Part shown: piece after piece, positions 4,041 through 53,100 of the stretch
Numbering within the stretch: the first letter of the stretch is position 1
Layout: every line of letters begins with the position of its first letter
Origin: an uncultured virus (IMG/VR IMGVR_UViG_3300021373_001770)
Taxonomy: Duplodnaviria > Heunggongvirae > Uroviricota > Caudoviricetes
Virus record (IMG/VR): IMGVR_UViG_3300021373_001770
Coordinates: 1-64,000 of that record
Strand: one strand, 5' to 3'
Length of the DNA: 64,000 bases
Notes under the pieces: model-generated
Database searches by the model: none
Told to the model about the DNA's origin: nothing
Seen by the model: only the letters and a program-made list of their open reading frames with translations
Made by a program: the position numbers and the translations under genes

Positions 4041-5192
4041 TTATCTTTTTAGTGGATTATATCTAGTTATTTTATTTTGATCAAAAGTTTTAAGGGCTTT
4101 GTCTACCCATTTTTCATCTTGTGTTCCTTTATAACACAATATGTGACATACTGCTGTCTCAGTTGGGTTAAGCCTTAATAGTCTACCTATACGTTGTGCT
4201 GTTTTACGTTCATTACCATATGCATGCATAATAATTCCTGCTTTTAATTTTGGAATTGTAACACCTTCTGATAATTGTAACACACATGATAATTTATCTA
4301 TACGTCCATCAGAAAATAATTCTAAATTTTCATCTGATTTTGGATTTTTTGAGTGATAGCTATGACTACACATTCTATCAGCTTGTTTTTGTGTATTAGC
4401 AAATATAATGCACTTGTCATTTATATTCTTTAATAGACTAATTACATAGCTTTCTTTACTTGTATAATCCATTATAGCTCTCATGCGTAATATTCTAGCA
4501 AACTGTATTTGCTTTGCTGTTGCTGCATCTGCTACTCTAGACGTTACATAATCATAATCTTTTTTCTCAGAAGTATACCAAAAACCACCTTTCTTATTCT
4601 TTTTTTTAAGGCTTGGTAGTTTAGATAATTCTAATTCATGTACTATGATTTTATAATCATTTAAGATGTTTGAGTCAGTAGCCTGATCAACATTAAACCT
4701 AAATCTTATAGGACAATATTTTTGTACAAGCATTCCTTTTTCAGAACCTGTGTCTTTTGGTGGCGTACCAGTTAAACCAAGGATCTTTCCTGTAAATCTT
4801 GCTAAAAATAATTCATGTACATACTTAAGTGAATGACATTCATCTAAATATACTATATCAAAGTCTTCTGGATTTCTTTTCTTAAGTGATATATATGTAG
4901 TAAAGGTTATATGGTCTAATAAATTTAAAAGACCCATCTTTTCTAACTCATCATTCCAAGACTGTGCTACAGAATGTTTTGGTACAACAACTAATACTTG
5001 TATAAACTGATTGTAGTGTCTTTGTAGATGCTTTATGGCTATTCTAGTTTTACCAACACCCATTGATATAGCTAAACCACATCTTTTATGTTGTGCGGCT
5101 ATACTTAATGCATTATGTTGTACTACATCCCTTTTATGTATTTGAATATGTTGATCCATATAGTTAGTGTTATAATTAGTATTATTGTCCAA
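4041..5192 (-). CDS. Superfamily 2 (DExH) helicase
   Basis: Motifs MGVGKT, LDECH, GLTGT, IIFAN, SEGVTIP and QRIGRLLR. The start may be the ATG at 5159. Confidence 0.9.
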   Translation of the reverse strand: MDNNTNYNTNYMDQHIQIHKRDVVQHNALSIAAQHKRCGLAISMGVGKTRIAIKHLQRHYNQFIQVLVVVPKHSVAQSWNDELEKMGLLNLLDHITFTTYISLKKRNPEDFDIVYLDECHSLKYVHELFLARFTGKILGLTGTPPKDTGSEKGMLVQKYCPIRFRFNVDQATDSNILNDYKIIVHELELSKLPSLKKKNKKGGFWYTSEKKDYDYVTSRVADAATAKQIQFARILRMRAIMDYTSKESYVISLLKNINDKCIIFANTQKQADRMCSHSYHSKNPKSDENLELFSDGRIDKLSCVLQLSEGVTIPKLKAGIIMHAYGNERKTAQRIGRLLRLNPTETAVCHILCYKGTQDEKWVDKALKTFDQNKITRYNPLKR

Positions 5193-5456: not shown

Positions 5457-5530
5457 TGGACCCTACAGGGCTTGAACCTGTGACCTACTGATTATGAGTC
5501 AGTTGCTCTAACCATCTGAGCTAAGAGTCC
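5457..5530 (-). tRNA. tRNA with CAT anticodon, most likely tRNA-Ile2 (lysidine type)
   Basis: GGACTCTTAGCTCAGATGGTTAGAGCAACTGA-CTCATAA-TCAGTAGGTCACAGGTTCAAGCCCTGTAGGGTCCA folds as a complete cloverleaf and resembles bacterial ileX. An elongator Met identity is not excluded. Confidence 0.85.
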
Positions 5531-5619
5531 TGGTAGCCGGAGTGGGACTTGAACCCACACGGGTATTACTACCCAACAGATTTTAAGTCTGTCATGTCTA
5601 CCAATTCCATCATCCGGCC
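5531..5619 (-). tRNA. tRNA-Leu(TAA)
   Basis: GGCCGGA/TCCGGCT acceptor stem, anticodon arm ACAGA-CTTAAAA-TCTGT, long variable arm and encoded CCA. Confidence 0.92.
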
Positions 5620-5623
5620 TCTG

Positions 5624-5697
5624 TGATCCCACAAGGATTTGAACCTTGAACCTACAGCTTAGAAGGCTGTTGCTCTATCCAGTTGAGCTATGGGACC
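5624..5697 (-). tRNA. tRNA-Arg(TCT)
   Basis: GGTCCCATAGCTCAACTGGATAGAGC-ACAGC-CTTCTAA-GCTGT...GGTTCAAATCC; complete cloverleaf. Confidence 0.92.
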
Positions 5698-8702: not shown

Positions 8703-9548
8703 TTAATTTATAAATCTATGTAAATCTGATGGTTCAAATACATATTCAGGAGTATTGACATAATTCATGTCATCTAATGAATACCATACATCATTTGTAA
8801 CCGGATTTAATAAGATGTGTTGTTCTTGAGCTGGCATATAGCTTTGGGCAAGCATAAATATTTTATGACCATTGCTGTTAACTGCCATATCTACTACTGT
8901 AATAGCATGACCAGGAAATCCTCCAGTGATAAATACATCACCGGTTTTCATTTCCCAATAGTTAACATCCTTTGTATCATATTTCTCTATTGAGTATGTA
9001 CCTGCATAACTCCATATTAGATCTAACCAACGTCTGAATGTTTTACAAGTATCTTTACGACTTTTGCCCCATACTGTAGCTATATCACGTCCACCATTGA
9101 CTGGTGTTGGTGATGCTCCTCTAAGATAATCTAGATAACTTGATTTATATCCGTTTGTAAAACTGAATTTTAATTTATCTAAATTACCTTGAGAATAATT
9201 ATAAGATGCTCTCAAGTATATAGCAGCATCAGCACAGTGATGTAAATCTCTTTTACCGATATCATATTTAAATACTGCTGCGTATATATAATTATTGTGT
9301 TTAACACTACCATTAAAGTATTTTACTTCTGTTTTTTCCTTTAAAGGATGATCAGTTAACCAATCAGCATAATCTGACTCAATGAGTCTTTCATATCCTG
9401 ATGGTAACTGAAACAAATTTTTGATGCTTAAGTGGTTGTGTTTGTTATACGTTTGTCCTTGACATTGCATAACGAAGCCCAGTGCTATTATAAGCGTTAT
9501 TAAATAAACTGTGCCTCCATTAAAACGGGTATTATTATTTAGACCCAT
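8703..9548 (-). CDS. DUF4846-family exported protein (papain/NlpC-P60-like Cys-His)
   Basis: Signal peptide, plus DLHHCADAAIYLRA, GDVFITGGFPGHAITVVDMA and FMLAQSYMPAQ. Confidence 0.75.
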   Translation of the reverse strand: MGLNNNTRFNGGTVYLITLIIALGFVMQCQGQTYNKHNHLSIKNLFQLPSGYERLIESDYADWLTDHPLKEKTEVKYFNGSVKHNNYIYAAVFKYDIGKRDLHHCADAAIYLRASYNYSQGNLDKLKFSFTNGYKSSYLDYLRGASPTPVNGGRDIATVWGKSRKDTCKTFRRWLDLIWSYAGTYSIEKYDTKDVNYWEMKTGDVFITGGFPGHAITVVDMAVNSNGHKIFMLAQSYMPAQEQHILLNPVTNDVWYSLDDMNYVNTPEYVFEPSDLHRFIN

Positions 9549-15353: not shown

Positions 15354-15653
15354 ATGGCAGATTTAAAAACCAATTCAGAACTATCTGATAAGAATCCTGA
15401 ACTTTCAAAGGAAGAGTTAGCACAACGCAGAGAAGAAATCACTGCATTTTACAAGGATAATATTCCACATTTAACTGTTCAAGCTGAATATGAGGCATTA
15501 CTTGCTGATATTGAGAAGTCAAGAGCAGAGCGCATGCAAGCACAAATGTTTATGGCACAACAATATGCTGCACAAAAACAGGCTGAACAACCATCAACAC
15601 CTGAAGCTGAGGCCTTTAAAGAGGCAATGAATGAAGCAGTAAAAGCAGAATAA
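15354..15653 (+). CDS. Coiled-coil hypothetical protein
   Basis: ORF track; preceded by TATATTTG (15321-15328). Confidence 0.7.
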   Translation: MADLKTNSELSDKNPELSKEELAQRREEITAFYKDNIPHLTVQAEYEALLADIEKSRAERMQAQMFMAQQYAAQKQAEQPSTPEAEAFKEAMNEAVKAE

Positions 15654-19020: not shown

Positions 19021-19085
19021 AAAAGAAACCCAATACATCTTTTGTTATTGGGATGAACCAATTAATAATTTAAAAAAAATCAACA

Positions 19086-19364
19086 ATGAAGAAACAAGTA
19101 GTAATACCAGTAGGAAAAAGATTACTGATAAAAAGAAAAGCAGCAGAGACTAAAACAGCATCAGGAATTATTATTCCTGAAATAGCTCAAAAAAAAGAAT
19201 TTAAAGGATTAGTAGTTGGTGTAGGTGCTGAAGTTGAAGAAATTAATGTAGGTGATGAAGTTCAGTATGCAGAACATGCTATGCCAACTCCAATGAAACA
19301 TGAGGGTGAAGAGCATTTACTTCTTCAAGCTGGTGATGTATTTGCCATCATAAGATATGAGTAG
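19086..19364 (+). CDS. groES: Co-chaperonin GroES
   Basis: PVGKRLLIKR, KTASGIIIPE, GLVVGVG and VGDEV. Confidence 0.92.
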   Translation: MKKQVVIPVGKRLLIKRKAAETKTASGIIIPEIAQKKEFKGLVVGVGAEVEEINVGDEVQYAEHAMPTPMKHEGEEHLLLQAGDVFAIIRYE

Positions 19365-24305: not shown

Positions 24306-24426
24306 CTGGTGTTAGCTATATACTGCAATTTATTTTTAATTTTCATCAAATATTATAAGTTTATAATATAAAGTTTACGTATATTATATATGTAACAAGT
24401 ATTAATTATTTAAAACCAACATAATT

Positions 24427-27685: not shown

Positions 27686-27802
27686 AGTCAAAAACTATAG
27701 CAAGGGTAATACCTTGCTTAAGAAATATTAGTAATAATAGAATGTACACTATGGTGTATTATTTGACGCAAGTAATAATTATTAATTTTTAAAAACCACA
27801 AA

Positions 27803-31260: not shown

Positions 31261-31836
31261 ATGGCAAGCAGACATATATTAAGTTTAGAAATTCCCACAG
31301 TATCTAACTGTGATTTATTGTGTATAAAAGACACTAGTCAATATTCTAAAGAATTGGCTGTTGATTGTGAAGAATTATTAATAACCTTACCTGGTTATTC
31401 GGTACCTGTTTTAATAAAAGTTGATAAAGATTTTGATATGTGCCTAACTGCATGTACTCTTTCTTTACAAAAAGAAGATTGTGGAACTAAACAATCACAA
31501 ATTCCTGATGGTATTTACATTATAAAATATAGTGTATCACCTAACTCTAAAGTGTATGTTGAATATAATCATTTAAGAGTAACTAAATTACTAACTACTT
31601 ATTATGAAGTATTGTGTGATTTAGATGTGCAAGCATGTCAGCCAGATTCTGATAAACAGGAATTATTATCAGAAATGTATTATATAAGAACAATAATTGA
31701 TGCGGCAGTATCTAATGTAGAATATTGTCAATCATCTGCACAAGGTATGCAGTTATATAATTATGCAAAACAAATGTTAAACAAGATATCTTGTCCATCA
31801 GGTAATTGTGGATCAAGTTCAAAATATTTAATATAA
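31261..31836 (+). CDS. Tail hub/collar-like structural protein
   Basis: IPDGIYIIKYSV; position before the fibres; Cys-rich. Confidence 0.55.
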   Translation: MASRHILSLEIPTVSNCDLLCIKDTSQYSKELAVDCEELLITLPGYSVPVLIKVDKDFDMCLTACTLSLQKEDCGTKQSQIPDGIYIIKYSVSPNSKVYVEYNHLRVTKLLTTYYEVLCDLDVQACQPDSDKQELLSEMYYIRTIIDAAVSNVEYCQSSAQGMQLYNYAKQMLNKISCPSGNCGSSSKYLI

Positions 31837-31848
31837 ACCAACAATAGA

Positions 31849-40338: not shown

Positions 40339-40372
40339 TTTACTATATTTGTTAATATAAAAACCAAATAAG

Positions 40373-40627: not shown

Positions 40628-40754
40628 TACTTCACTTCTCATAATATTCTTACAAAAGTTTTTAAGATCAGACTTTTCTGGTTTTAAAAATTTTTGTATA
40701 TTATAATTGTATAGTTTGTAAGTCAGAAGTACATTATAATAAAAAAGAATATTT

Positions 40755-42965
40755 ATGATCCCAACAAATTCAAGTATAACCACAAACGGTTGTGATAATA
40801 TATCATCCAATTGTGTAATTTGGCAAGGGCCAGATATTGCATGTATAGATTTATGTACTGGTGATACTATAAGCATAGTTACAAAAAAAATTGCAGATAA
40901 GGTTTGTCAAATTATAACTGATGGTGTAACTGCTAATCCGGACTTAACAGGATTAGATTTAAGTTGTCTTAATATTCAAGGTGTAACACCAACAGAATTG
41001 GTTCCTGTTCTTCAGGCAATGGTTACTCAAATATGTGCTAACACAAATAGTAGTGGAGGCGGAGGTATGAGTCCTTTACCAACTATGACATTACCTGCTT
41101 GTTTAGTGTATGATGATCCAAGTGGAAACCCAGTAACACAATTACCACTAGATCAATTTGCTACATTAATTGCAAATCAGGTATGTACTAATTTAGCAAG
41201 TATTACTACTATAAATGCTACTTTAACAAGTTACAATACTAGAATTACAACTTTAGAAAATTGTGTTTTACCTTGTGGTGGTTCAGTGGCAGAAGTTCAA
41301 ATAGTACCTACTTGTGTAAGTAATGTAGGTCAATTAACTAATGTATCGGTAGTAGTATTAGCACTTGAAAGTGCGTTTTGTGCATTACAAACGGCTGTTG
41401 GTTTACCTGGAGCTATATCTTCTGCAATATCTCAAACAGTAATTACAGGATCTTATAATACACTAACAGATAATAGTGTTTCCTATGGAAGTATTGTTGG
41501 TTGGAATAATAGTCCAAGTACATTGGCAGAAAGCGTTCAAAATGCATGGGTTGTAATTGATGATTTATATAGTGCAGTAGCAGCTATACAAACAAATTGT
41601 TGTCCTAGTGGATGTGACGGTGTTGTTTTTGCATACTCTACATCTACTCAAATTAATACATCAGGTGTAATAACAGGTATTAATTTTGATTTTACAGGAT
41701 CTACTATACCTGCTTCATTTAATGATACATCAGGTTATTCTATTATTACTTTAACAGATGCAAATGGAGCTTCAACAAATACAGTATTTAGTGTAGCAAG
41801 TTTACAAAATAATCCAACAGGATTATTAGTGTCAACTGGAACTTTAAATACTTTTCAAAATATTCAAGTTGCTATAAGTTTCTCAGTTACTGATGGTAGT
41901 GATACATGTGAAGCAGCTCAAAATTCTGTGGTTAATGGCGTAATACCTTGTCCAACTATGTTATCATCAGCAATTACTACAACAGAAGCAACAATATCAT
42001 TTGGTAATTTATTAGGTACTAGTGCTGTATATACATTAGACTTGTTAGATGTTAGCAATAATGTGGTTGCTACACAAGTATTTAATAATCCAGGTGTATC
42101 ATTAACACATACATTTACAGGATTAACTCCAGGCAGTAATTATACAGCTAGGCTTACTATAGGTATTGGTGGAGCAACTGAGGTGTGTGCTAATACAATT
42201 AATTTTACAACAGTTAATGGTGCAGCACCATGTACAGATGGTATGGATGTAGCATTTGTTATTGATTACACTGCCTCTATGGGTACTGAAATAAATTCAA
42301 TTAAAACTGGATTTGCTTCATTAGTAAACACTATTCAAACAAGCTCAGGAGCTAATAATTATAGAATAGGTGTTACTACTGCTGATGAATATACAGATCC
42401 TACTACTCAACCTACTTATAGTGCATGTGCTGATTATCAAGCATTACCAGCTTCACAAAGAATTATAAATACAGGAATAGGACATACACAAGTTATTACA
42501 GCTTGGGAAATGTTCTCAGATAATAATGGTGCAAGTGCTACAACACAAGTTAATTTACTTAATGATGGTGTGGGTGATGGTACAGGATGTATTCAATTAG
42601 GTAATGGTGGTGGTGCTCCTGAACCAACAGATATGGCCATAAATCAAATATTAAATAATAATTTCTTAGGCGCTTGGAGACCAAACGTTGCTAAGTATAT
42701 TATTGTTATAACAGATGAATTGTCAGGTGGTCCAGACGATAGCTTTACTGCAGTAGATTATGCACAAATACAAACGTTTATTAATCAAGCATTAGCACAA
42801 GGAGTTACAATATTTGTTCTAGGTGAAGGGGTTGATAAAACATTTAATAATGGTGGTACTTTAGTATACCCATGGAGAGAGTTAGCAGATCAAACAGGAG
42901 GTAGTTGGAATATAAATGAAGATCCATCTACAATAAATGCAGAAATAGTAGCTGGTTGTTCATAA
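40755..42965 (+). CDS. Cys-rich virion protein with FN3-like and C-terminal vWA domains
   Basis: FTGLTPGSNYTAR (FN3); DVAFVIDYTASM, GGGAPE and WRPNVAKYIIVITDE (vWA). Confidence 0.75.
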   Translation: MIPTNSSITTNGCDNISSNCVIWQGPDIACIDLCTGDTISIVTKKIADKVCQIITDGVTANPDLTGLDLSCLNIQGVTPTELVPVLQAMVTQICANTNSSGGGGMSPLPTMTLPACLVYDDPSGNPVTQLPLDQFATLIANQVCTNLASITTINATLTSYNTRITTLENCVLPCGGSVAEVQIVPTCVSNVGQLTNVSVVVLALESAFCALQTAVGLPGAISSAISQTVITGSYNTLTDNSVSYGSIVGWNNSPSTLAESVQNAWVVIDDLYSAVAAIQTNCCPSGCDGVVFAYSTSTQINTSGVITGINFDFTGSTIPASFNDTSGYSIITLTDANGASTNTVFSVASLQNNPTGLLVSTGTLNTFQNIQVAISFSVTDGSDTCEAAQNSVVNGVIPCPTMLSSAITTTEATISFGNLLGTSAVYTLDLLDVSNNVVATQVFNNPGVSLTHTFTGLTPGSNYTARLTIGIGGATEVCANTINFTTVNGAAPCTDGMDVAFVIDYTASMGTEINSIKTGFASLVNTIQTSSGANNYRIGVTTADEYTDPTTQPTYSACADYQALPASQRIINTGIGHTQVITAWEMFSDNNGASATTQVNLLNDGVGDGTGCIQLGNGGGAPEPTDMAINQILNNNFLGAWRPNVAKYIIVITDELSGGPDDSFTAVDYAQIQTFINQALAQGVTIFVLGEGVDKTFNNGGTLVYPWRELADQTGGSWNINEDPSTINAEIVAGCS

Positions 42966-42982
42966 AATAAAAAAGAATTAAA

Positions 42983-43546
42983 ATGGCATGTAATTGTACA
43001 AAATGTAGTCAAAAGTGTAGCTGTGCTGATACAGCATTAACAAACCCGTGTACTTATACAGATTGTAGTGTAGGTAGCGAAAGATGTGATGATATACAGT
43101 GTGCTGCATGTGTAAGCTATTGTGGTACATCTTTTAAGATAGGTGATACTGGTAGTGAAATAGTTATAACTTCTGGTGAAAGATTAGATTCTATTATTCA
43201 AAAGTTTGCTATGATATTGGCAAATGGTTTAGGTGCTTGTACATCAAGTGATTTACAACATGATCCATATAATGTTTATGCTGGTGTTATTACAAGTAGT
43301 ACAGCAGAAGTAATATGGGATGGATTATGGAGTTCAAGCACTGGAGTAAATATATATTTAGATACTCAAATAGCTCCAGGAGGTTGGGTATTACAAAACT
43401 CATCACCTATTGCAACTACAATAAATAATTTTCAATTGACTAATTTAACAGCAAGTACTGCATATAAAGTAAAAGTTGTTGATAATGGAAACAGTGCAGC
43501 ATGTAAACCAATAGAGATTTTATTCTCAACATTAGCGGCATCATAA
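42983..43546 (+). CDS. Cys-rich protein with FN3-like domain
   Basis: Cys-dense N-terminus; LTNLTASTAYKVKV. Confidence 0.7.
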   Translation: MACNCTKCSQKCSCADTALTNPCTYTDCSVGSERCDDIQCAACVSYCGTSFKIGDTGSEIVITSGERLDSIIQKFAMILANGLGACTSSDLQHDPYNVYAGVITSSTAEVIWDGLWSSSTGVNIYLDTQIAPGGWVLQNSSPIATTINNFQLTNLTASTAYKVKVVDNGNSAACKPIEILFSTLAAS

Positions 43547-43552
43547 AAAAAA

Positions 43553-43626
43553 CAACAAGTGGTGGTTTGTTGGTTTTTCTACTACAAACGTTGGGAGAGA
43601 CTGGGGTGACTCAGTCTCTTTTTTTT
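43553..43626 (+). ncRNA. Candidate small RNA: antisense-loop hairpin plus terminator
   Basis: GTGGTGG(43559-65)/CTACTAC(43579-85) stem with 2 G-U pairs, loop TTTGTTGGTTTTT, outer stem CAAC/GTTG, then a terminator. Confidence 0.55.
43595..43626 (+). terminator. Intrinsic terminator
   Basis: GAGAGACTGGG-gtga-CTCAGTCTCT followed by a T run. Confidence 0.85.
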
Positions 43627-43676
43627 ACAATTAAATAAAAATGCTTATTTTTACATAAATCCTAATTAAAACTTTT

Positions 43677-44897
43677 ATGTCAAATTATCTCAAACAAAGA
43701 ATTATTGAAAGCCTCAAATGGAAAAAACATCCTTCATATTGTGCAGATAAATTAAATATTACTGAATCACAATATACTAAATTAAAGAAGCAAATATTAC
43801 AAGAAAGAAAAAAGGATAAAAAGAAAGATAAATTTTTTAGTAAAGCTGCAGATAATGCTCAACTAGTTGAATCAATAGATTTAGAAAAAGGGGAAGGTAA
43901 AATATCTGGTACATTTGATCATGAACCTAAAAGCGCTGAAGAAATTATTAAACTACTTAAGATAGATACAAACAAATGGAAACTATCACAATATTGGAAT
44001 AAACAAATGGGTGATCACTGGAGAGTTTCTGCATTAATTAGTCAGATAAAAAATCCAGATGAAAAACATTTTGAAGAGCTTCTTAAAAATTGGAAACCTC
44101 AGCAATATAAATTACCAAAAACTAAACTAAATAAAAAAGGAGAAAAAGTTTGTGGTGTTATGTCATTACAAGATATTCATTTTGGTAAACAAGGAAATGA
44201 AACTATTGATAAAGATTTTGAGGAAACCATTATTAATTTATTAGAAAGAGCTACACCAGCACATAATATTGAAAAGATGTATTTTGTTGTAGGAGGTGAT
44301 CTAATCAACATGGATACATTTGAGGGTACAACTACAAGTGGGACAGGATTAGATAATTGTATGACAGCTACAGATGCATATATACAAGCATTTAATGCTA
44401 TGCATTGGGCTATTGGTTATATAAAAGCTTTCTGTAAAGAACTAGTTATAGTTTATGTACCTGGTAATCATGATAGACTTTCTTCATTTCATTTAGTTCA
44501 TGCTCTATCACAATCTATAGATAGTAATGAAATTACTTGGGATATTAAATATGAAGAAAGAAAAGTTCATGTGTGGTATAATAATTTTAATGCATTTGAA
44601 CATGGTGATAAAAGAAGTAAAAATAACCCATTAATATATGCATCTGAATATCCTAAAGAATGGGGTCAAACAGTTAATAGAACTTTATTTAAAGGTCATA
44701 TTCATACAGATAGAAAAGTAGAATACATGACATCTAATGAGACAGCAGGTTTTATAGAAAAGACATTACCCAGTCTAGGTAAAACAGATTATTACCACTA
44801 TTCTAATAAGTATGTAGGTAACAGAAGAACAGGTAAATTAGAATTACAGCATCCAACTTTGGGTAATATAGCTGAATTTGCACATCAAGTATTATAA
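43677..44897 (+). CDS. Calcineurin-like metallophosphoesterase
   Basis: DIHFG, GGDLIN, PGNHD, EHGD and GHIH. Confidence 0.9.
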   Translation: MSNYLKQRIIESLKWKKHPSYCADKLNITESQYTKLKKQILQERKKDKKKDKFFSKAADNAQLVESIDLEKGEGKISGTFDHEPKSAEEIIKLLKIDTNKWKLSQYWNKQMGDHWRVSALISQIKNPDEKHFEELLKNWKPQQYKLPKTKLNKKGEKVCGVMSLQDIHFGKQGNETIDKDFEETIINLLERATPAHNIEKMYFVVGGDLINMDTFEGTTTSGTGLDNCMTATDAYIQAFNAMHWAIGYIKAFCKELVIVYVPGNHDRLSSFHLVHALSQSIDSNEITWDIKYEERKVHVWYNNFNAFEHGDKRSKNNPLIYASEYPKEWGQTVNRTLFKGHIHTDRKVEYMTSNETAGFIEKTLPSLGKTDYYHYSNKYVGNRRTGKLELQHPTLGNIAEFAHQVL

Positions 44898-44934
44898 AGA
44901 CTCCTGTTAAATTTCATTTAATGGGGTTTTTTTT
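44898..44934 (+). terminator. Intrinsic terminator
   Basis: ACTCCTGTTAAAT/ATTTAATGGGGT followed by a T run. Confidence 0.65.
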
Positions 44935-44955
44935 GTAAATTATAAATGTAACCAT

Positions 44956-45522
44956 ATGATTAATAATTTTAGAAAGCCTGATCTAAAAGCACCTAGATAT
45001 AGAGAAAAGAGATTGGGGTTATTAAACGAGGAAACAATAAGAGAGTTCAAAGATAAAAAACCTATGTACTCTCAAATAGATAATGTTAAATTAAAAAAGA
45101 TTATAAAACTATATAATGTAAAACTTTGGAATGCAGTTATAAACAATAGAGATGGTGTAGAATTACCTGATTCATTAGGTTTTTTATTTATTGGAACGTG
45201 TAAGCCTTCTAAAACAGTTAATACTAATTATGCTTTATCTAAACAATATGGCAAGGTTTTACAAAATAAAAACTGGGAAACTGATGGTAATTTGGGTAAG
45301 ATATTTTATACAAATTATTCAACTAAATATAGATTTAAAAATAGAGAGTTGTGGAGGTTTGTTGCATGTAGAGAGTTTAAAAGAGCTGTAGCTAAAAGCT
45401 ATCCTAATAATTGGACCAGATATGTAGTTATGAAGAATAAATATAGAGTAGCTCATTTATATGATGAGAACTCAGATGAAACCAACAAAGCATTAAAGTA
45501 TTATAATGAATTTGAAAAATAA
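44956..45522 (+). CDS. crAss-type IHF-like protein
   Basis: DGVELPDSLGFLFIG...WRFVACREFKRAVAK; synteny before the tubular and muzzle genes. Confidence 0.6.
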   Translation: MINNFRKPDLKAPRYREKRLGLLNEETIREFKDKKPMYSQIDNVKLKKIIKLYNVKLWNAVINNRDGVELPDSLGFLFIGTCKPSKTVNTNYALSKQYGKVLQNKNWETDGNLGKIFYTNYSTKYRFKNRELWRFVACREFKRAVAKSYPNNWTRYVVMKNKYRVAHLYDENSDETNKALKYYNEFEK

Positions 45523-45527
45523 AAAGA

Positions 45528-46199
45528 ATGGCAACAATAGCAGAAACAATATCTAGAATTAGGGGTCAAGTCAAAGCTGAAGTTCAAGATGCTTTTGTTA
45601 CTGATAGATATATTTATAGTCTTATTGAAAAATATGCTCAGTTCTTAATGAGAAGGCAAGACTATGCAAACAAACTTATAAAATTTAATTCAGTTTGGAA
45701 AACATTACCATATGTAGAATTGATTGAGGTAGATAAAGTAGAAGCACATTGTGCTGGAATACAAAGTGGTTGTACAATAAAACGTACAAAAAATAAACTT
45801 CCATCAATGTTTGAAGGATATTGGGGACCTCTTATACGAACCATAAGTTCTATTGATGGATCACAAGAGTTACAAGCAACTCAACCAGGAACTTACACCT
45901 CTATGACTAAAACTACTACTTTTAAATATAATAGATCATTATATTTTTGGTGGCTTGATGGTTATATATATTGCCCAAACATAGAATGGGATGCTATTAA
46001 AGTTGAAGGTGTATTTGATTCTGATATTACTAAATGGGATTGTGATATAGAAAATGACTGCACACCTAGATATGATCAACAAATATTTATACCAGAGGCT
46101 TTGTTTGCAGAAATAGAAAGTCAAGTTGTTGCAGCAATGACAAATACAATGCAAATCCCTTCAGAAGATTCTGATAACAAAAGAAACATAAATAGATAA
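45528..46199 (+). CDS. Tail ring/tubular protein
   Basis: Size and synteny; DGYIY...VEGVF. Confidence 0.65.
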   Translation: MATIAETISRIRGQVKAEVQDAFVTDRYIYSLIEKYAQFLMRRQDYANKLIKFNSVWKTLPYVELIEVDKVEAHCAGIQSGCTIKRTKNKLPSMFEGYWGPLIRTISSIDGSQELQATQPGTYTSMTKTTTFKYNRSLYFWWLDGYIYCPNIEWDAIKVEGVFDSDITKWDCDIENDCTPRYDQQIFIPEALFAEIESQVVAAMTNTMQIPSEDSDNKRNINR

Positions 46200-46201
46200 T
46201 A

Positions 46202-47140
46202 ATGGGAGTATCACATAAATATAGAACGTTTAGTCAATTAATGGAAGATGTATCTATTGATTTTTCTACATATGCATTAGAAGGTATGATAGAACCTCAA
46301 CAGCTAATAAAAGTTGCACAAAGGGTAAACTATGATTTAGGTTTAAAAATACATAGAACTAAGCAAGTAATAATTGATATTGAACATGGTAAAGGACAAT
46401 TGCCTGTAGATTTTAAATATATTAATTATGCATTTAGATGTGGTAATTATAAAATAAACACAACAATGCCGTCAGGTACACACGTTGAAACATTTAATGA
46501 TGTTCCATATGTACCTGCACCAGGTGAGAAAGCTCCGTGCAATACAGATCCTACATGTAAAGATGTATGTGTAATTAAAACATGTGATGATGAAAAAAGT
46601 TATCAATTAGTTCAAAGAGTTGGGCCAGATCAGTATAGATGTTTTGATACTTGGACACAACTTAGAATTCAAGATGTTAATGATGCTGTATGTTATTGTC
46701 CAACATTAGGAGCACAAGCATTAGATATTGCTGAAGTAAAAGATGGATGGCTTATTACAACTTTTAAAACAGGTAAAGTTTATTTGAGTTATCAAGGAGC
46801 TATGGAAGATACTTTTGGTGATTTACTGGTATTAGATCATCCATACTGTAATGAATATTATGAGTATGCCATAAAACAAAGAATACTTGAGAATATGGTT
46901 TGGCAAGGAGAAAATGTATCTAATCAATTAGGATTAGTAGAACAAAGGTTAAGAGCTGCAAGAAATAATGCATTAGGTTTTGTTAATACTCCTGATTTTA
47001 AAGATATGTGGAAAGTCTTTACAATGAATAGAAGAGCACAGTATCATAATTATTATAATATGTTTTTGAGTTATGCTCCTATAAACCCAAGAGTTGTTTC
47101 TGCACCAAATGTTTCATCAAGCGGTAGCACAACAGTTTGA
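46202..47140 (+). CDS. Tail ring/tubular protein
   Basis: GQLPVDF...TGKVYLSYQG; immediately before the muzzle gene. Confidence 0.65.
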   Translation: MGVSHKYRTFSQLMEDVSIDFSTYALEGMIEPQQLIKVAQRVNYDLGLKIHRTKQVIIDIEHGKGQLPVDFKYINYAFRCGNYKINTTMPSGTHVETFNDVPYVPAPGEKAPCNTDPTCKDVCVIKTCDDEKSYQLVQRVGPDQYRCFDTWTQLRIQDVNDAVCYCPTLGAQALDIAEVKDGWLITTFKTGKVYLSYQGAMEDTFGDLLVLDHPYCNEYYEYAIKQRILENMVWQGENVSNQLGLVEQRLRAARNNALGFVNTPDFKDMWKVFTMNRRAQYHNYYNMFLSYAPINPRVVSAPNVSSSGSTTV

Positions 47141-50100: not shown

Positions 50101-53100
50101 AGAATATGTAAGTTCTACTCCAATAGAGTTTAGTGATAGTTATTTGCTAGAACCTACTACTGAAAGAGGATCAACAATATCAGCATATTATGGTGCATTA
50201 AAATTTAATTTTGATAATCAATATGGTCAATTATCTGGTATCAAACAAGTTCAAATGCGTGGTTGTGTTGAGCTGCTTGATCCTAATAAACCAGATGAAT
50301 ATTTATACAGCAGTAAACCTATTTTTGCAGGAGATACATTTGTAGGTAGGTATACTGAAAAAGTTATAATGCCAATATTTAGTAATTATTTATTAGGCCA
50401 ACCTGATAATTATACTTTTGATTATTCTTTATATGTAAACATACCTTACCCAAGATGGTGGTTGAATTCTCAAAGATATGATATTACACCATTAGCAAGA
50501 GAAATAGCTACTTTAGGTCTGGTTAGTACTGGCTCTTTAGAAGCTCTTTATCCAAATGATTTATTTTATTTGGATAGAGGTAATGATTCTTGTGCTTCAG
50601 GTTTTAATGCATTATTTAATGAAGATGATCCTAATCCAACGTTTGAAATGCTATATGCATATATGTATACACATATTAATGGTATGTTAGATTTTTATGT
50701 GGAGTCTGAAATTAATTTAGATCAAAGAGATTGGGAAGATGAACCAGCAAAAAGAATATACAGTGTTTATGATTATAATGATACTGATGAATTATTCCAT
50801 GCAGCTATAGAAAAAGAAGACAACTTTTATAAATATGATGAATCATTAAGTGTTGGAAAGTTTCCTACACAAATGGCATCTTTTGCTGAAGTACAGCGTT
50901 TAGATTATGATCCTTACATTGCTGAGACTTGTTATGTAAATTATCCTAAAAGGTTAATATATTCTTTACAGGCACAAGAAGAATCAAGAAAAGATTATTG
51001 GAGAGTATTTTTAAATAACAACTATAGAGATTTTAAAAATGATGTTAGTGTTATAAAACCAATTAATAAAAGCGGTGCATTAATATTCTTTCCACATTTG
51101 TCACCTCAAATGTTTCAGGGACTTGATACATTGAAGACTCAGCTTGATACTAAATTAACAATAGGTGATGGCGGTTTGTTTAGTCAACCCTTCCAAAATG
51201 TTGCAAATGCAGATATATCTAATGAGTATGGTTCATGTGAAAGTTTAAGAGGTGTTATTAATACACCTGTTGGTTTATTTTTTATATCACAAGCACAAGG
51301 TAAGATATTTCAATATGCTGGTAAAGGTCTTCAGCCAATATCAAATCAAGGTATGAAATGGTGGTTTGCAAAATATTTACCATCTAAATTTATAAAACAA
51401 TTTCCAAATTCAGAGACATCAGTATGGACAGATAATCCAGTTCAAGGTGTGGGTTGTCAAGTTATATATGATTCAGTAGATGATGTAGTTTATTTTATGA
51501 AAAAAGATTATAAACTTAAATCTCAATATATTGCAACAGCAGAATTTGTTGACACTGATTATAAGCCGGTTATTGTAGAAACTGTACCTGGTGTAAAAGT
51601 TAATGTAGACATAGGTGATCCAATTTATTTTGATGATTGTTCATGGACTATTAGTTATGATCCTAAAGTCAAAGCTTGGATTTCATTTCATGATTGGCAC
51701 CCTGAATTAGCATTACCAAGTATAAATCATTTCTTTACTACAAAAACAACAACTACTACTATACCTCAATGTCCTCCAGGATATTCTTATAATCCTTCAA
51801 ATGGTTTGTGTGAAATAGCAATTAATCAAACTGTAGATGCAACTATTACTGTTGATGAAATAACTGAAAATATTGTATCAGGTGGACCAGTTAATTGTTT
51901 GGTAGATGTTGTAATTGCAATGGACACTTCTGGTAGTACAAATAATAATAATAGAAGACAAGCACAACTTGCCCTTGTTGCTGCTTTCTTAGCGGATCCT
52001 CAAATAGTAACTTTGATGAATAATGCACAGATGCAGATTGGATTTACAGAATGGGATACTGCATCTACAGCTTTTGATATTCCTAATCCTGCAGGTGGTA
52101 CTTGGTCTATGAGTAATACAGTTACTAATGCAACGGTACAAAACTGGTATAACTCAATATGGGGTGGTGGTGGCACAAGTGAAATTGTAGGTTTGAATGG
52201 TGCACAAGCATTAATAAATAATAAGGCTGGTTCTCAACTAGGAGATAGAAGTGCTCAACCAAATTTTAGAAATGTTATTTTATTTATAACAGATACAACA
52301 GGTAATCCTGGTGCACAAACTGGACAACCTTTTCAAAGTAGCACTGTAGGTACTGGTACTGGACCAGCTAACCAATTTTTGTATGGTATATATTGTGGTG
52401 CTACAAGTGCAGTTCCACCAAGTACAGCAACATTAAATTCAATAACACAAACTACTGGACCAGTTAACGTTGATCCATATCAATTTGGTATAAATGCTGC
52501 TAACCCAGCAACTTTTCAACCTGTTGCAAATGCTATTGCTGGTGCAGTTTGTGGAACAGATTATGAGTGTGAATGTCCTACAGGCTATACATTAGTTTAT
52601 CCAGACCCTGTTACTTCATCATATAGTTCTGCTACTGGTACTTGTACAGATGTTCCTGGAGAAGCTCCAATATGTAGAAGAGTTACTTGTGAGTGTCCAC
52701 CTGTTGTTGTACCTGGAACAGTAGTTACCGAATTGGGAACTTGTCCAGATAGTGCTCCTGGAATATATGATATTGGTGATCCTAATTGGGTTGACCCAGA
52801 TCCAAGACGTTGTAATTTTTATTTTTATGAAAGTACAACAGCTAATTTTGAAGTAGGATCATTTTGGAGACATAATGTAAGATGTGATTTATTTGCAAAT
52901 TACTATAATGAAGATTACCCATGGGAAATAGATTTAATATCTAATACCGGTCAGGCGGTAAACACAGTCCGTAGTTTTGAATATCAATTAGAAACTTATG
53001 TTTATAAAGGAGATCCTCAATATAATATGTGTGGTGGAGATAAATGGGAAGATTTAGATTTTAATTTTGATAGAGCAATTGTATATAACAATGATCAGAC

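Follow-up and report, generated by a model that had tools for sequence, protein, structure and literature searches.

A conserved hairpin with a near-invariant loop in the 3′ UTR of a virion-gene transcript in crAss-like phages, a candidate anti-leader RNA

We identified a structured RNA element that is a genuine, deeply conserved motif of crAss-like phages and is absent from Rfam. It was studied in a stretch of 64,000 nucleotides (hereafter the window), which is part of a crAss-like phage record of 71,496 bases. A hairpin and a terminator make up the element, on one strand only; the loop is near-invariant on a covarying stem, each genome carries one copy, and the word complementary to the loop recurs in the leaders of two gene families. 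Judging from its sequence, the hairpin is likely an undescribed regulatory RNA, and our best reading, held tentatively at somewhat short of an even chance, is that it may be an anti-leader small RNA (sRNA) derived from the 3′ end of a transcript and working like GcvB.

The window encodes crass-type capsid, tail ring, and muzzle proteins, as expected of a Crassvirales-like phage, with Pfam matches to Crass_capsid (106.1 bits), CrAss_Ring_2 (71.6 bits), CrAss_Ring_1 (29.6 bits), and crAss_MUZ (93.7 bits), all above the 27-bit cut-off; PHROGs matches include terminase, portal, GroES, and tail fibres. The capsid protein shares 23-29% identity with the nearest cultured capsid proteins, and a nucleotide search of the INPHARED phages with positions 42,000-45,000 returned no match. 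The parts of the element and its two neighboring genes are as follows:

42,983-43,546 (plus strand): 187-aa Cys-rich gene, 5′ of the element (weak “major tail protein” PHROG match, no Pfam match)
43,544-43,546 (plus strand): TAA stop codon of the 187-aa gene
43,553-43,626 (plus strand): whole element (P1, P2 hairpin, and terminator), 3′ of the stop codon on the same strand
43,553-43,556 (plus strand): 5′ strand of P1, CAAC, the outer helix of the window clade (MFE fold)
43,559-43,565 (plus strand): 5′ strand of P2, GUGGUGG (fold and covariation)
43,566-43,578 (plus strand): loop UUUGUUGGUUUUU, 13 nt here, the predicted pairing surface (conservation)
43,579-43,585 (plus strand): 3′ strand of P2, CUACUAC (fold and covariation)
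43,590-43,593 (plus strand): 3′ strand of P1, GUUG, within an invariant GUUG(G/A) (fold and alignment)
43,594-43,626 (plus strand): intrinsic terminator, a 12-bp stem (43,594-43,621) with a GUGA loop and a U-run (8 U)
43,677-44,897: 406-aa exonuclease-like gene (phrog_704), 3′ of the element

The first-pass annotation had described a 7-bp stem with a 13-nt loop and a strong terminator behind the stop codon of the 42,983-43,546 gene, and we confirmed all of these in the sequence and in the fold. It had also held that the hairpin forms on the plus strand only; this is correct, because P2 includes two G-U pairs among its 7 bp, and the minus strand adopts a different fold (-3.7 kcal/mol) in which the hairpin is absent. 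The terminator is a G+C-rich stem-loop followed by a U-run, as in intrinsic (rho-independent) terminators, and folds at -26.9 kcal/mol (z -3.76; 0 of 200 shuffles were as stable). The first hairpin by itself reaches -6.9 kcal/mol (z -0.77); since 43 of 200 shuffles fold as well, it is not singled out by thermodynamics alone. Upstream of the hairpin, we saw no evident -7 box. In a scan of the window with Rfam 15 only three tRNAs were found, and no family reached its gathering threshold; a permissive scan of 43,400-43,750 gave at best 24.3 bits (E ~1) for Bacteroid-trp, which has a gathering score of 49, and 17.9 bits for FasX against a gathering score of 100.

Relatives were fetched by means of both flanking proteins, which yielded 159 loci, the most divergent having 39% identity in the upstream protein; for the 187-aa protein, the best 80 of 106 relatives were taken. 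The loop 10-mer is at the expected place in every one of the 159 protein-anchored loci, which contain 67 distinct versions of the element. Our alignment holds 58 of these versions and the window (59 sequences; nine near-duplicates were left out). An invariant loop with a covarying stem, which had been proposed as the check on this hairpin, is what these loci contain: the loop core GUUUGUUGGUU is invariant in the window-clade alignment (the loop is 12 nt long in most relatives, and 13 nt in the window), and the stems under it vary, for example GUGGUGG/CUACUAC, GUAGUGG/CUACUGC, GUGAUAG/CUAUCAC, and GUGGCGG/CUGUCAC. Across the 59 sequences 96.2% of the cells are paired overall, the covariation score was reached by none of 500 shuffles, and pairing falls to 39-60% when the pairing partners are slid. 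P2 is the best supported helix (99.5% of cells paired, with GC/AU/GU exchanges and three pairs changed on both sides), followed by the terminator stem (95.4%, with five pairs changed on both sides) and P1 (columns 9-12 with 49-52; 91.8%, with one-sided changes only). A covariance model found exactly one strong match (70-95 bits) in each of six genomes, the next best match having 31 bits. As a separate observation, the 187-aa protein encoded upstream has a Cys-rich N-terminus, in which at least eight Cys are (near-)invariant in 10 diverse homologues; judging from this sequence pattern, it might bind metal.

The same loop occurs beyond the window clade. We scanned viral contigs for an exact 15-mer (~550 stretches estimated, of which 120 were examined) and did the same with bacterial genomes (~2500 stretches estimated, 121 examined). 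Among the first 100 viral loci, the covariance model assigned 23 to the window clade (at least 59 bits), and 18 scored ~30 bits. Nine of the latter, from AT-rich contigs, were folded, and all but one (L620) have the common loop and a terminator on unrelated stems, such as AUGUUCUAG/CUAGAACAU, AAAUCAUAG/CUGUGAUUU, and AAAAUCUGAG/CUUAGAUUUU. In total, a closing stem of at least 6 bp was found in 44 of the 120 viral loci, 43 of them with a T-run, and these represent 23 distinct stems; in the bacterial control the same test gave such a stem in one of 121 loci and a stem with a T-run in none. From these counts (~550 stretches, 44 hairpins among the 120 examined) we estimate ~200 instances of the element in IMG/VR. 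The pair count on alignment A3 is inflated, because its rows were chosen for having the stem, and the bacterial control serves as the independent check. Bacterial homologues of the element in the hosts were considered and rejected: the 15-mer is common in bacteria, but none of the 121 loci combines stem and T-run, and the covariance model found one weak match in 100 bacterial loci (L244, 30 bits, no hairpin).

In five genomes of this AT-rich lineage the element is directly upstream of the exonuclease-like gene, as in the window, and the gene before the element differs; P1 is absent. The capsid and exonuclease proteins of the lineage share 20-29% identity with those of the window phage, with the exception of G020 (73% capsid identity). 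To sample the lineage without a bias toward the loop, we collected 65 distinct upstream regions through the exonuclease protein: 53 keep the 10-mer (loop UUUGUUGGUU), 10 have UUUAUUGGUUUU, one has U7GGU5, and one is unclear. Given these variants, the truly invariant part of the loop is UUGGUU(UU). In both lineages a Bacteroidota-type -7 box (TAnnTTTG/A) lies between the terminator and the exonuclease-like gene (43,627-43,676 in the window); since it follows the terminator, the element marks a boundary between transcription units. We also noticed that many genes of the AT-rich lineage (G016-G019, L794-L803) start in a fixed context, AACUACAU(N)AUG, which the window clade does not have.

The gene that lies between portal and capsid carries a complement of the loop, AAAACCAAC(A), in its leader, and similar words occur elsewhere in the window. 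The first-pass annotation had listed matches in five leaders and one inside a coding sequence, all of which are present:

24,412-24,423 (plus strand): AAAACCAACAUA (AAAACCAACATA in DNA), at -15 to -4 of the 435-aa gene (ATG 24,427), the best predicted target
27,791-27,802 (plus strand): AAAAACCACAAA, directly before ATG 27,803 of the 339-aa gene after the capsid gene, the second predicted target
31,834-31,845 (plus strand): leader of the 60-aa gene (ATG 31,849), a weaker candidate target (-11.7 kcal/mol)
40,359-40,371 (plus strand): leader of the 84-aa gene (ATG 40,373), a weaker candidate target, 7 nt after the -7 box TATATTTG
19,076-19,087: leader of the GroES gene (ATG 19,086), sequence match
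15,367-15,376: AAAAACCAAT, inside the 15,354 coding sequence, sequence match

A further internal site, GAAACCAACAAA at 45,478-45,489, was not taken as a target: it is coding, and varies at wobble positions in the orthologues.

With up to two mismatches, the 12-mer complement of the loop occurs 40 times in the window (22.0 ± 4.5 in shuffles), and it matches 5 of 60 window leaders (positions -25 to -1) versus a mean of 0.9, ranking first among 220 words of the same composition. In the genomes of five relatives, the same leader test gave ranks of 2, 7, 42, 66, and 142 of 220, so that the complete 12-mer is no general motif of leaders; its enrichment is absent in three of the six genomes. A shorter word is more widespread. 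In 550 leaders from the six genomes, the top A-rich hexamers are AAACCA (29 occurrences), AAAACC (25), and AACCAA (20), where ~5.5 are expected; and 18 of the 118 occurrences of AAAACCAA fall in a leader, versus a mean of 3.0 for 28 words of the same composition, again the top rank. The motif is therefore more frequent at starts than A-rich words of the same composition, which had been the second check on the idea.

Two gene families carry the word throughout. The 435-aa gene can be called scaffold by position only, with no PHROG or Pfam family match. Its leader contains the motif in all six genomes, and AAAACCAA is present in all 33 distinct leaders from 80 relatives (32 with AAAACCAAC, one with AAAACCAAU); AACCAA or more is kept in four of four more distant relatives, and AAACCAA in each of the 12 AT-rich-lineage genomes examined. 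Likewise, AAACCA is found in all 40 distinct relatives' leaders of the 339-aa gene family after the capsid gene. As background, AAACCAA occurs within 50 nt upstream of 44 of 955 genes (4.6%). The motif is found in the orthologue leaders of the 31,849 gene in two of three cases, and of the 40,373 gene in one of four. These upstream regions have other recurring features as well. A box, GTATATTATaTATgTA, recurs 25-45 nt upstream of several virion genes (24,380-24,400, and also before 31,261 and 40,755), is kept in relatives, and could be a promoter specific to the phage. Before the 27,803 gene (27,745-27,775 in the window; loci L418-L497), a palindrome, GTACA...TGTAC, with TTTTGAC behind it, is kept in most of the 40 distinct relatives, and may be a terminator or an operator overlapping a -33 TTTG.

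We utilized RNAduplex to predict the pairing between the loop and start regions. The start region of the scaffold-position gene ranks first in five of six genomes, with -11.7 to -13.7 kcal/mol (the median is about -4.5), including the window, where the target leader is free of structure and the duplex with 24,412-24,423 has -11.7 kcal/mol; the start of this gene had been miscalled in the sixth genome, where the true leader has AAAAACCAACA. The first-pass annotation had proposed that the RNA tunes assembly helpers such as scaffold and GroES; the scaffold part is upheld by this ranking and by the motif in every relative examined, while the GroES leader match is not conserved, the leaders of the orthologues being different. 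By mean best energy, the real loop is second among 220 loops of the same composition: it is surpassed only by itself shifted by 1 nt, and all of the four best loops are shifts of one core. Genome by genome, the permutation tests are moderate (17, 7, 12, 9, 40, and 1 of 220), and in the AT-rich lineage they gave 10, 34, and 43 of 220: in the complete genome G016 the best energy is matched by 10 of 220 permutations and the top three energies by 2 of 220, and the test is not significant in two partial contigs. The best loop matches in the AT-rich lineage are leaders with AAAA(C/U)CAGCAA, which pair through G-U wobbles: 42,945-43,562 (reverse strand, -13.4 kcal/mol) and 50,102-50,563 (reverse strand, -10.3 kcal/mol) in G016, both of them genes encoded on the other strand from the virion genes, and 45,878-46,306 (forward strand, -10.7 kcal/mol) in G017.

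The element is placed at the 3′ end of the transcript of a virion gene in a crAss-like phage, and we propose that it would work as follows. The RNA would accumulate, be it as a 3′ fragment released by processing or simply as the mRNA's 3′ end, and would pair in trans, through its exposed G/U-rich loop, with an A/C-rich word, AAAACCAA(CA), that a few virion genes carry in their 5′ leaders; the clearest candidate target is the scaffold-position gene. In the window phage, pairing at -15 to -4 would mask the A-rich determinants on which Shine-Dalgarno-less initiation in Bacteroidia depends, and less target protein would be made. In Flavobacterium johnsoniae, adenines at -12/-13, -6, and -3 promote initiation (PMC6847099), and the window site covers such positions. 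The assembled RNA-library contigs that we inspected are short and lie on neighboring genes; over the element there are none, or only those of run X1, whose RNA label is a guess and which may be DNA. In the AT-rich lineage, 20-40 nt separate the word from the ATG, and it starts 5-9 nt after a TAnnTTTA(C) -7-like box, close to where the transcript is predicted to start; an action on translation alone is therefore not the sole option there, and an effect on mRNA stability is equally possible. An effect on 5′ ends or stability, or a role at the promoter, is as plausible in that lineage as ribosome occlusion.

The main rival reading, which we consider somewhat unlikely, is that an RNA-binding protein of phage or host recognizes the loop, or that the loop is a signal for processing or stability of the mRNA 3′ end, the complementarity being incidental. 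Complementarity that holds across the family spans only ~7-8 nt (UUGGUUUU/AAAACCAA; UUGGUUU(U)/(A)AAACCAA) and is longer only in the window clade; since the whole 12-nt loop is near-invariant, something besides the targets may constrain it, as recognition by a protein would. Natural loop variants point the same way: the variants UUAC and UUCU still face AAAACCAACA in the scaffold-position leader, no pattern links the base at loop position 4 (G or A) to the one that it faces (A, U, or C), and no compensatory change in the target was seen for any of these (UUAC, UUCU, G4 to A), only the complement of the 8-nt core being kept. That both lineages have the element at a fixed place just before the exonuclease-like gene (phrog_704), behind a gene that varies, also suits this reading, and so does the presence of GUUGG twice in the window clade, in the loop and again 3′ of the stem. 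Against it, no RNA-binding domain was found among 51 window ORFs scanned with Pfam, the real loop is second of 220 in matching the conserved leaders, and the complementary word is always present in two gene families against the 4.6% background.

A second possibility, to which we give a rather small chance, extends the anti-leader reading to the host: a phage-made anti-enhancer RNA that would mask words of the AAACCAA type, retune the phage's own head-assembly genes, and also act on host messages with that word. With two MAGs as host proxies, AAACCAA is the top word of its composition in 322 leaders of a Flavobacterium MAG (12 versus 3.95), and is not enriched in 270 leaders of a Flavobacteriaceae MAG (2 versus 1.76; rank 14 of 21); since it leads in one of these two Flavobacteriia genomes, AAACCAA may be a generic leader word and not phage-specific, which weakens the pairing model as such. 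If host messages are hit too, an RNA would take over translation in Bacteroidota by a route that is new. To our knowledge, Bacteroidota have no Hfq, so that an 8-bp A/U-rich duplex may be weak, a further point against our best reading.

We also consider it rather improbable that the element is a termination accessory and nothing else, a tandem hairpin that aids termination or blocks 3′ exonucleases between two virion-gene units with no sequence-specific partner. The element does always adjoin a strong terminator, with the -7-type promoter box behind it in both lineages; but the terminator hairpin is already strong alone, and a structural role would leave the invariant 12-nt loop on freely varying stems unexplained.

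Action at promoters or transcript starts seems to us improbable. Here the loop would be an RNA copy of the template strand near the transcription start site (TSS), acting on RNA polymerase or on nascent 5′ ends; a 6S-like decoy and a P4 CI-like termination of nascent leaders are both possible models. 6S RNA presents a two-stranded bubble, which a 12-nt hairpin loop does not resemble, and in the window-clade leaders the spacing to -7-like boxes is inconsistent. In favor are the 5-9 nt spacing of the AT-rich word behind its box at a variable distance from the ATG, the 7-nt spacing to TATATTTG at the 40,373 gene, and the TSSs of F. johnsoniae, which lie 4-5 nt after the -7 element (PMC6847099). 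Last, that the hairpin arose by chance in an A/T-rich spacer and is no real feature is refuted: by itself it is no more stable than shuffles, but the covariation with an invariant loop, the one copy per genome, the 23 distinct stems, and the negative bacterial control all speak against it.

Several other readings were rejected. A tiny ORF (GTG..TGA, 16 codons) over the hairpin would be shifted in frame by the 12- versus 13-nt loops. A signal for -1 frameshifting or readthrough does not fit an A-run after the stop that is interrupted and variably spaced in relatives, a loop length that varies between 12 and 13 nt, or a terminator inside the would-be extension. For mimicry of or pairing with 16S rRNA, the first 1373 nt of a Flavobacterium 16S contain no complement of the AACCAA type, and resemble the loop only in UUGUUGGU, which lies in a region that we take to be helical; no 23S was found in the three MAGs searched. 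CRISPR repeats end in GUUG...CAAC, and the element, with CAAC...GUUG, is unlikely to be a mimic of them.

Among known systems, the closest functional analogue of the proposed anti-leader RNA would be GcvB, an enterobacterial sRNA that uses its G/U-rich region to silence translation enhancers, rich in C/A (ACA), located before starts (PMC3879156). Both have a G/U-rich single-stranded surface complementary to an A/C-rich element before the starts of several mRNAs, and the predicted mode, masking of an initiation-promoting element, is the same. GcvB is chromosomal and Hfq-dependent and has its own promoter, whereas the element is phage-encoded, sits in a 3′ UTR, has its pairing surface in a hairpin loop, belongs to a Shine-Dalgarno-less host group, and is assigned its function by prediction; the two share no homology in sequence or structure (no Rfam match).

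By position, the element resembles the 3′-UTR-derived, terminator-sharing base-pairing sRNAs of the CpxQ, SroC, and DapZ type, which depend on RNase E and Hfq in enterics. It follows a stop codon on the same strand and uses the mRNA's own intrinsic terminator, in all 159 loci and in the AT-rich lineage, and it has a conserved, exposed motif that could serve as an accessible seed (the invariant loop core on its covarying stem); it differs in being known from sequence, with processing and accumulation only predicted. By homology, it is a member of neither this group nor GcvB. Phage hairpin RNAs processed from longer transcripts are represented by c4 of P1/P7, CI of P4, and DicF of the Qin prophage, which act in immunity and lysogeny of temperate elements in enterobacteria. 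The element shares with them a small phage-encoded hairpin whose unpaired bases are complementary to leaders of the phage's own transcripts, but its place is amid virion genes in a crAss-like phage, and it has no homology to them (Rfam negative). RNAIII and the Rsa sRNAs of Staphylococcus aureus pair C-rich hairpin loops with the Shine-Dalgarno sequences of many mRNAs; a conserved hairpin-loop motif complementary to a generic start-region word of several mRNAs is common to them and the element, whereas the motif and hosts are different, the word involved here is no Shine-Dalgarno sequence, and its targets are only predictions.

A full-text literature search found no published description of the element and no regulatory RNA of crAss-like phages. 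These are among the most abundant phages of Bacteroidota, hosts that initiate without Shine-Dalgarno pairing and in which the control of initiation by an RNA regulator is little understood. The element is a deeply conserved single-copy motif whose exposed loop is invariant and whose predicted targets are few; it gives access to this question by direct tests, and could readily be put forward as a new RNA family.

We also noted other features of the window. Three adjacent tRNA genes (71.3, 57.4, and 71.7 bits) are located at 5,457-5,697 (reverse strand) in a minus-strand block, which also contains, on the reverse strand, a DUF4846 gene (8,703-9,548, 238 bits), a gene of the uracil-DNA glycosylase superfamily (1,504-2,214), and a ResIII/Helicase_C helicase gene (4,041-5,192). 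A 20-bp A/T-rich inverted repeat, terminator-like, lies 3′ of the 84-aa gene at 40,653-40,696 (forward strand).
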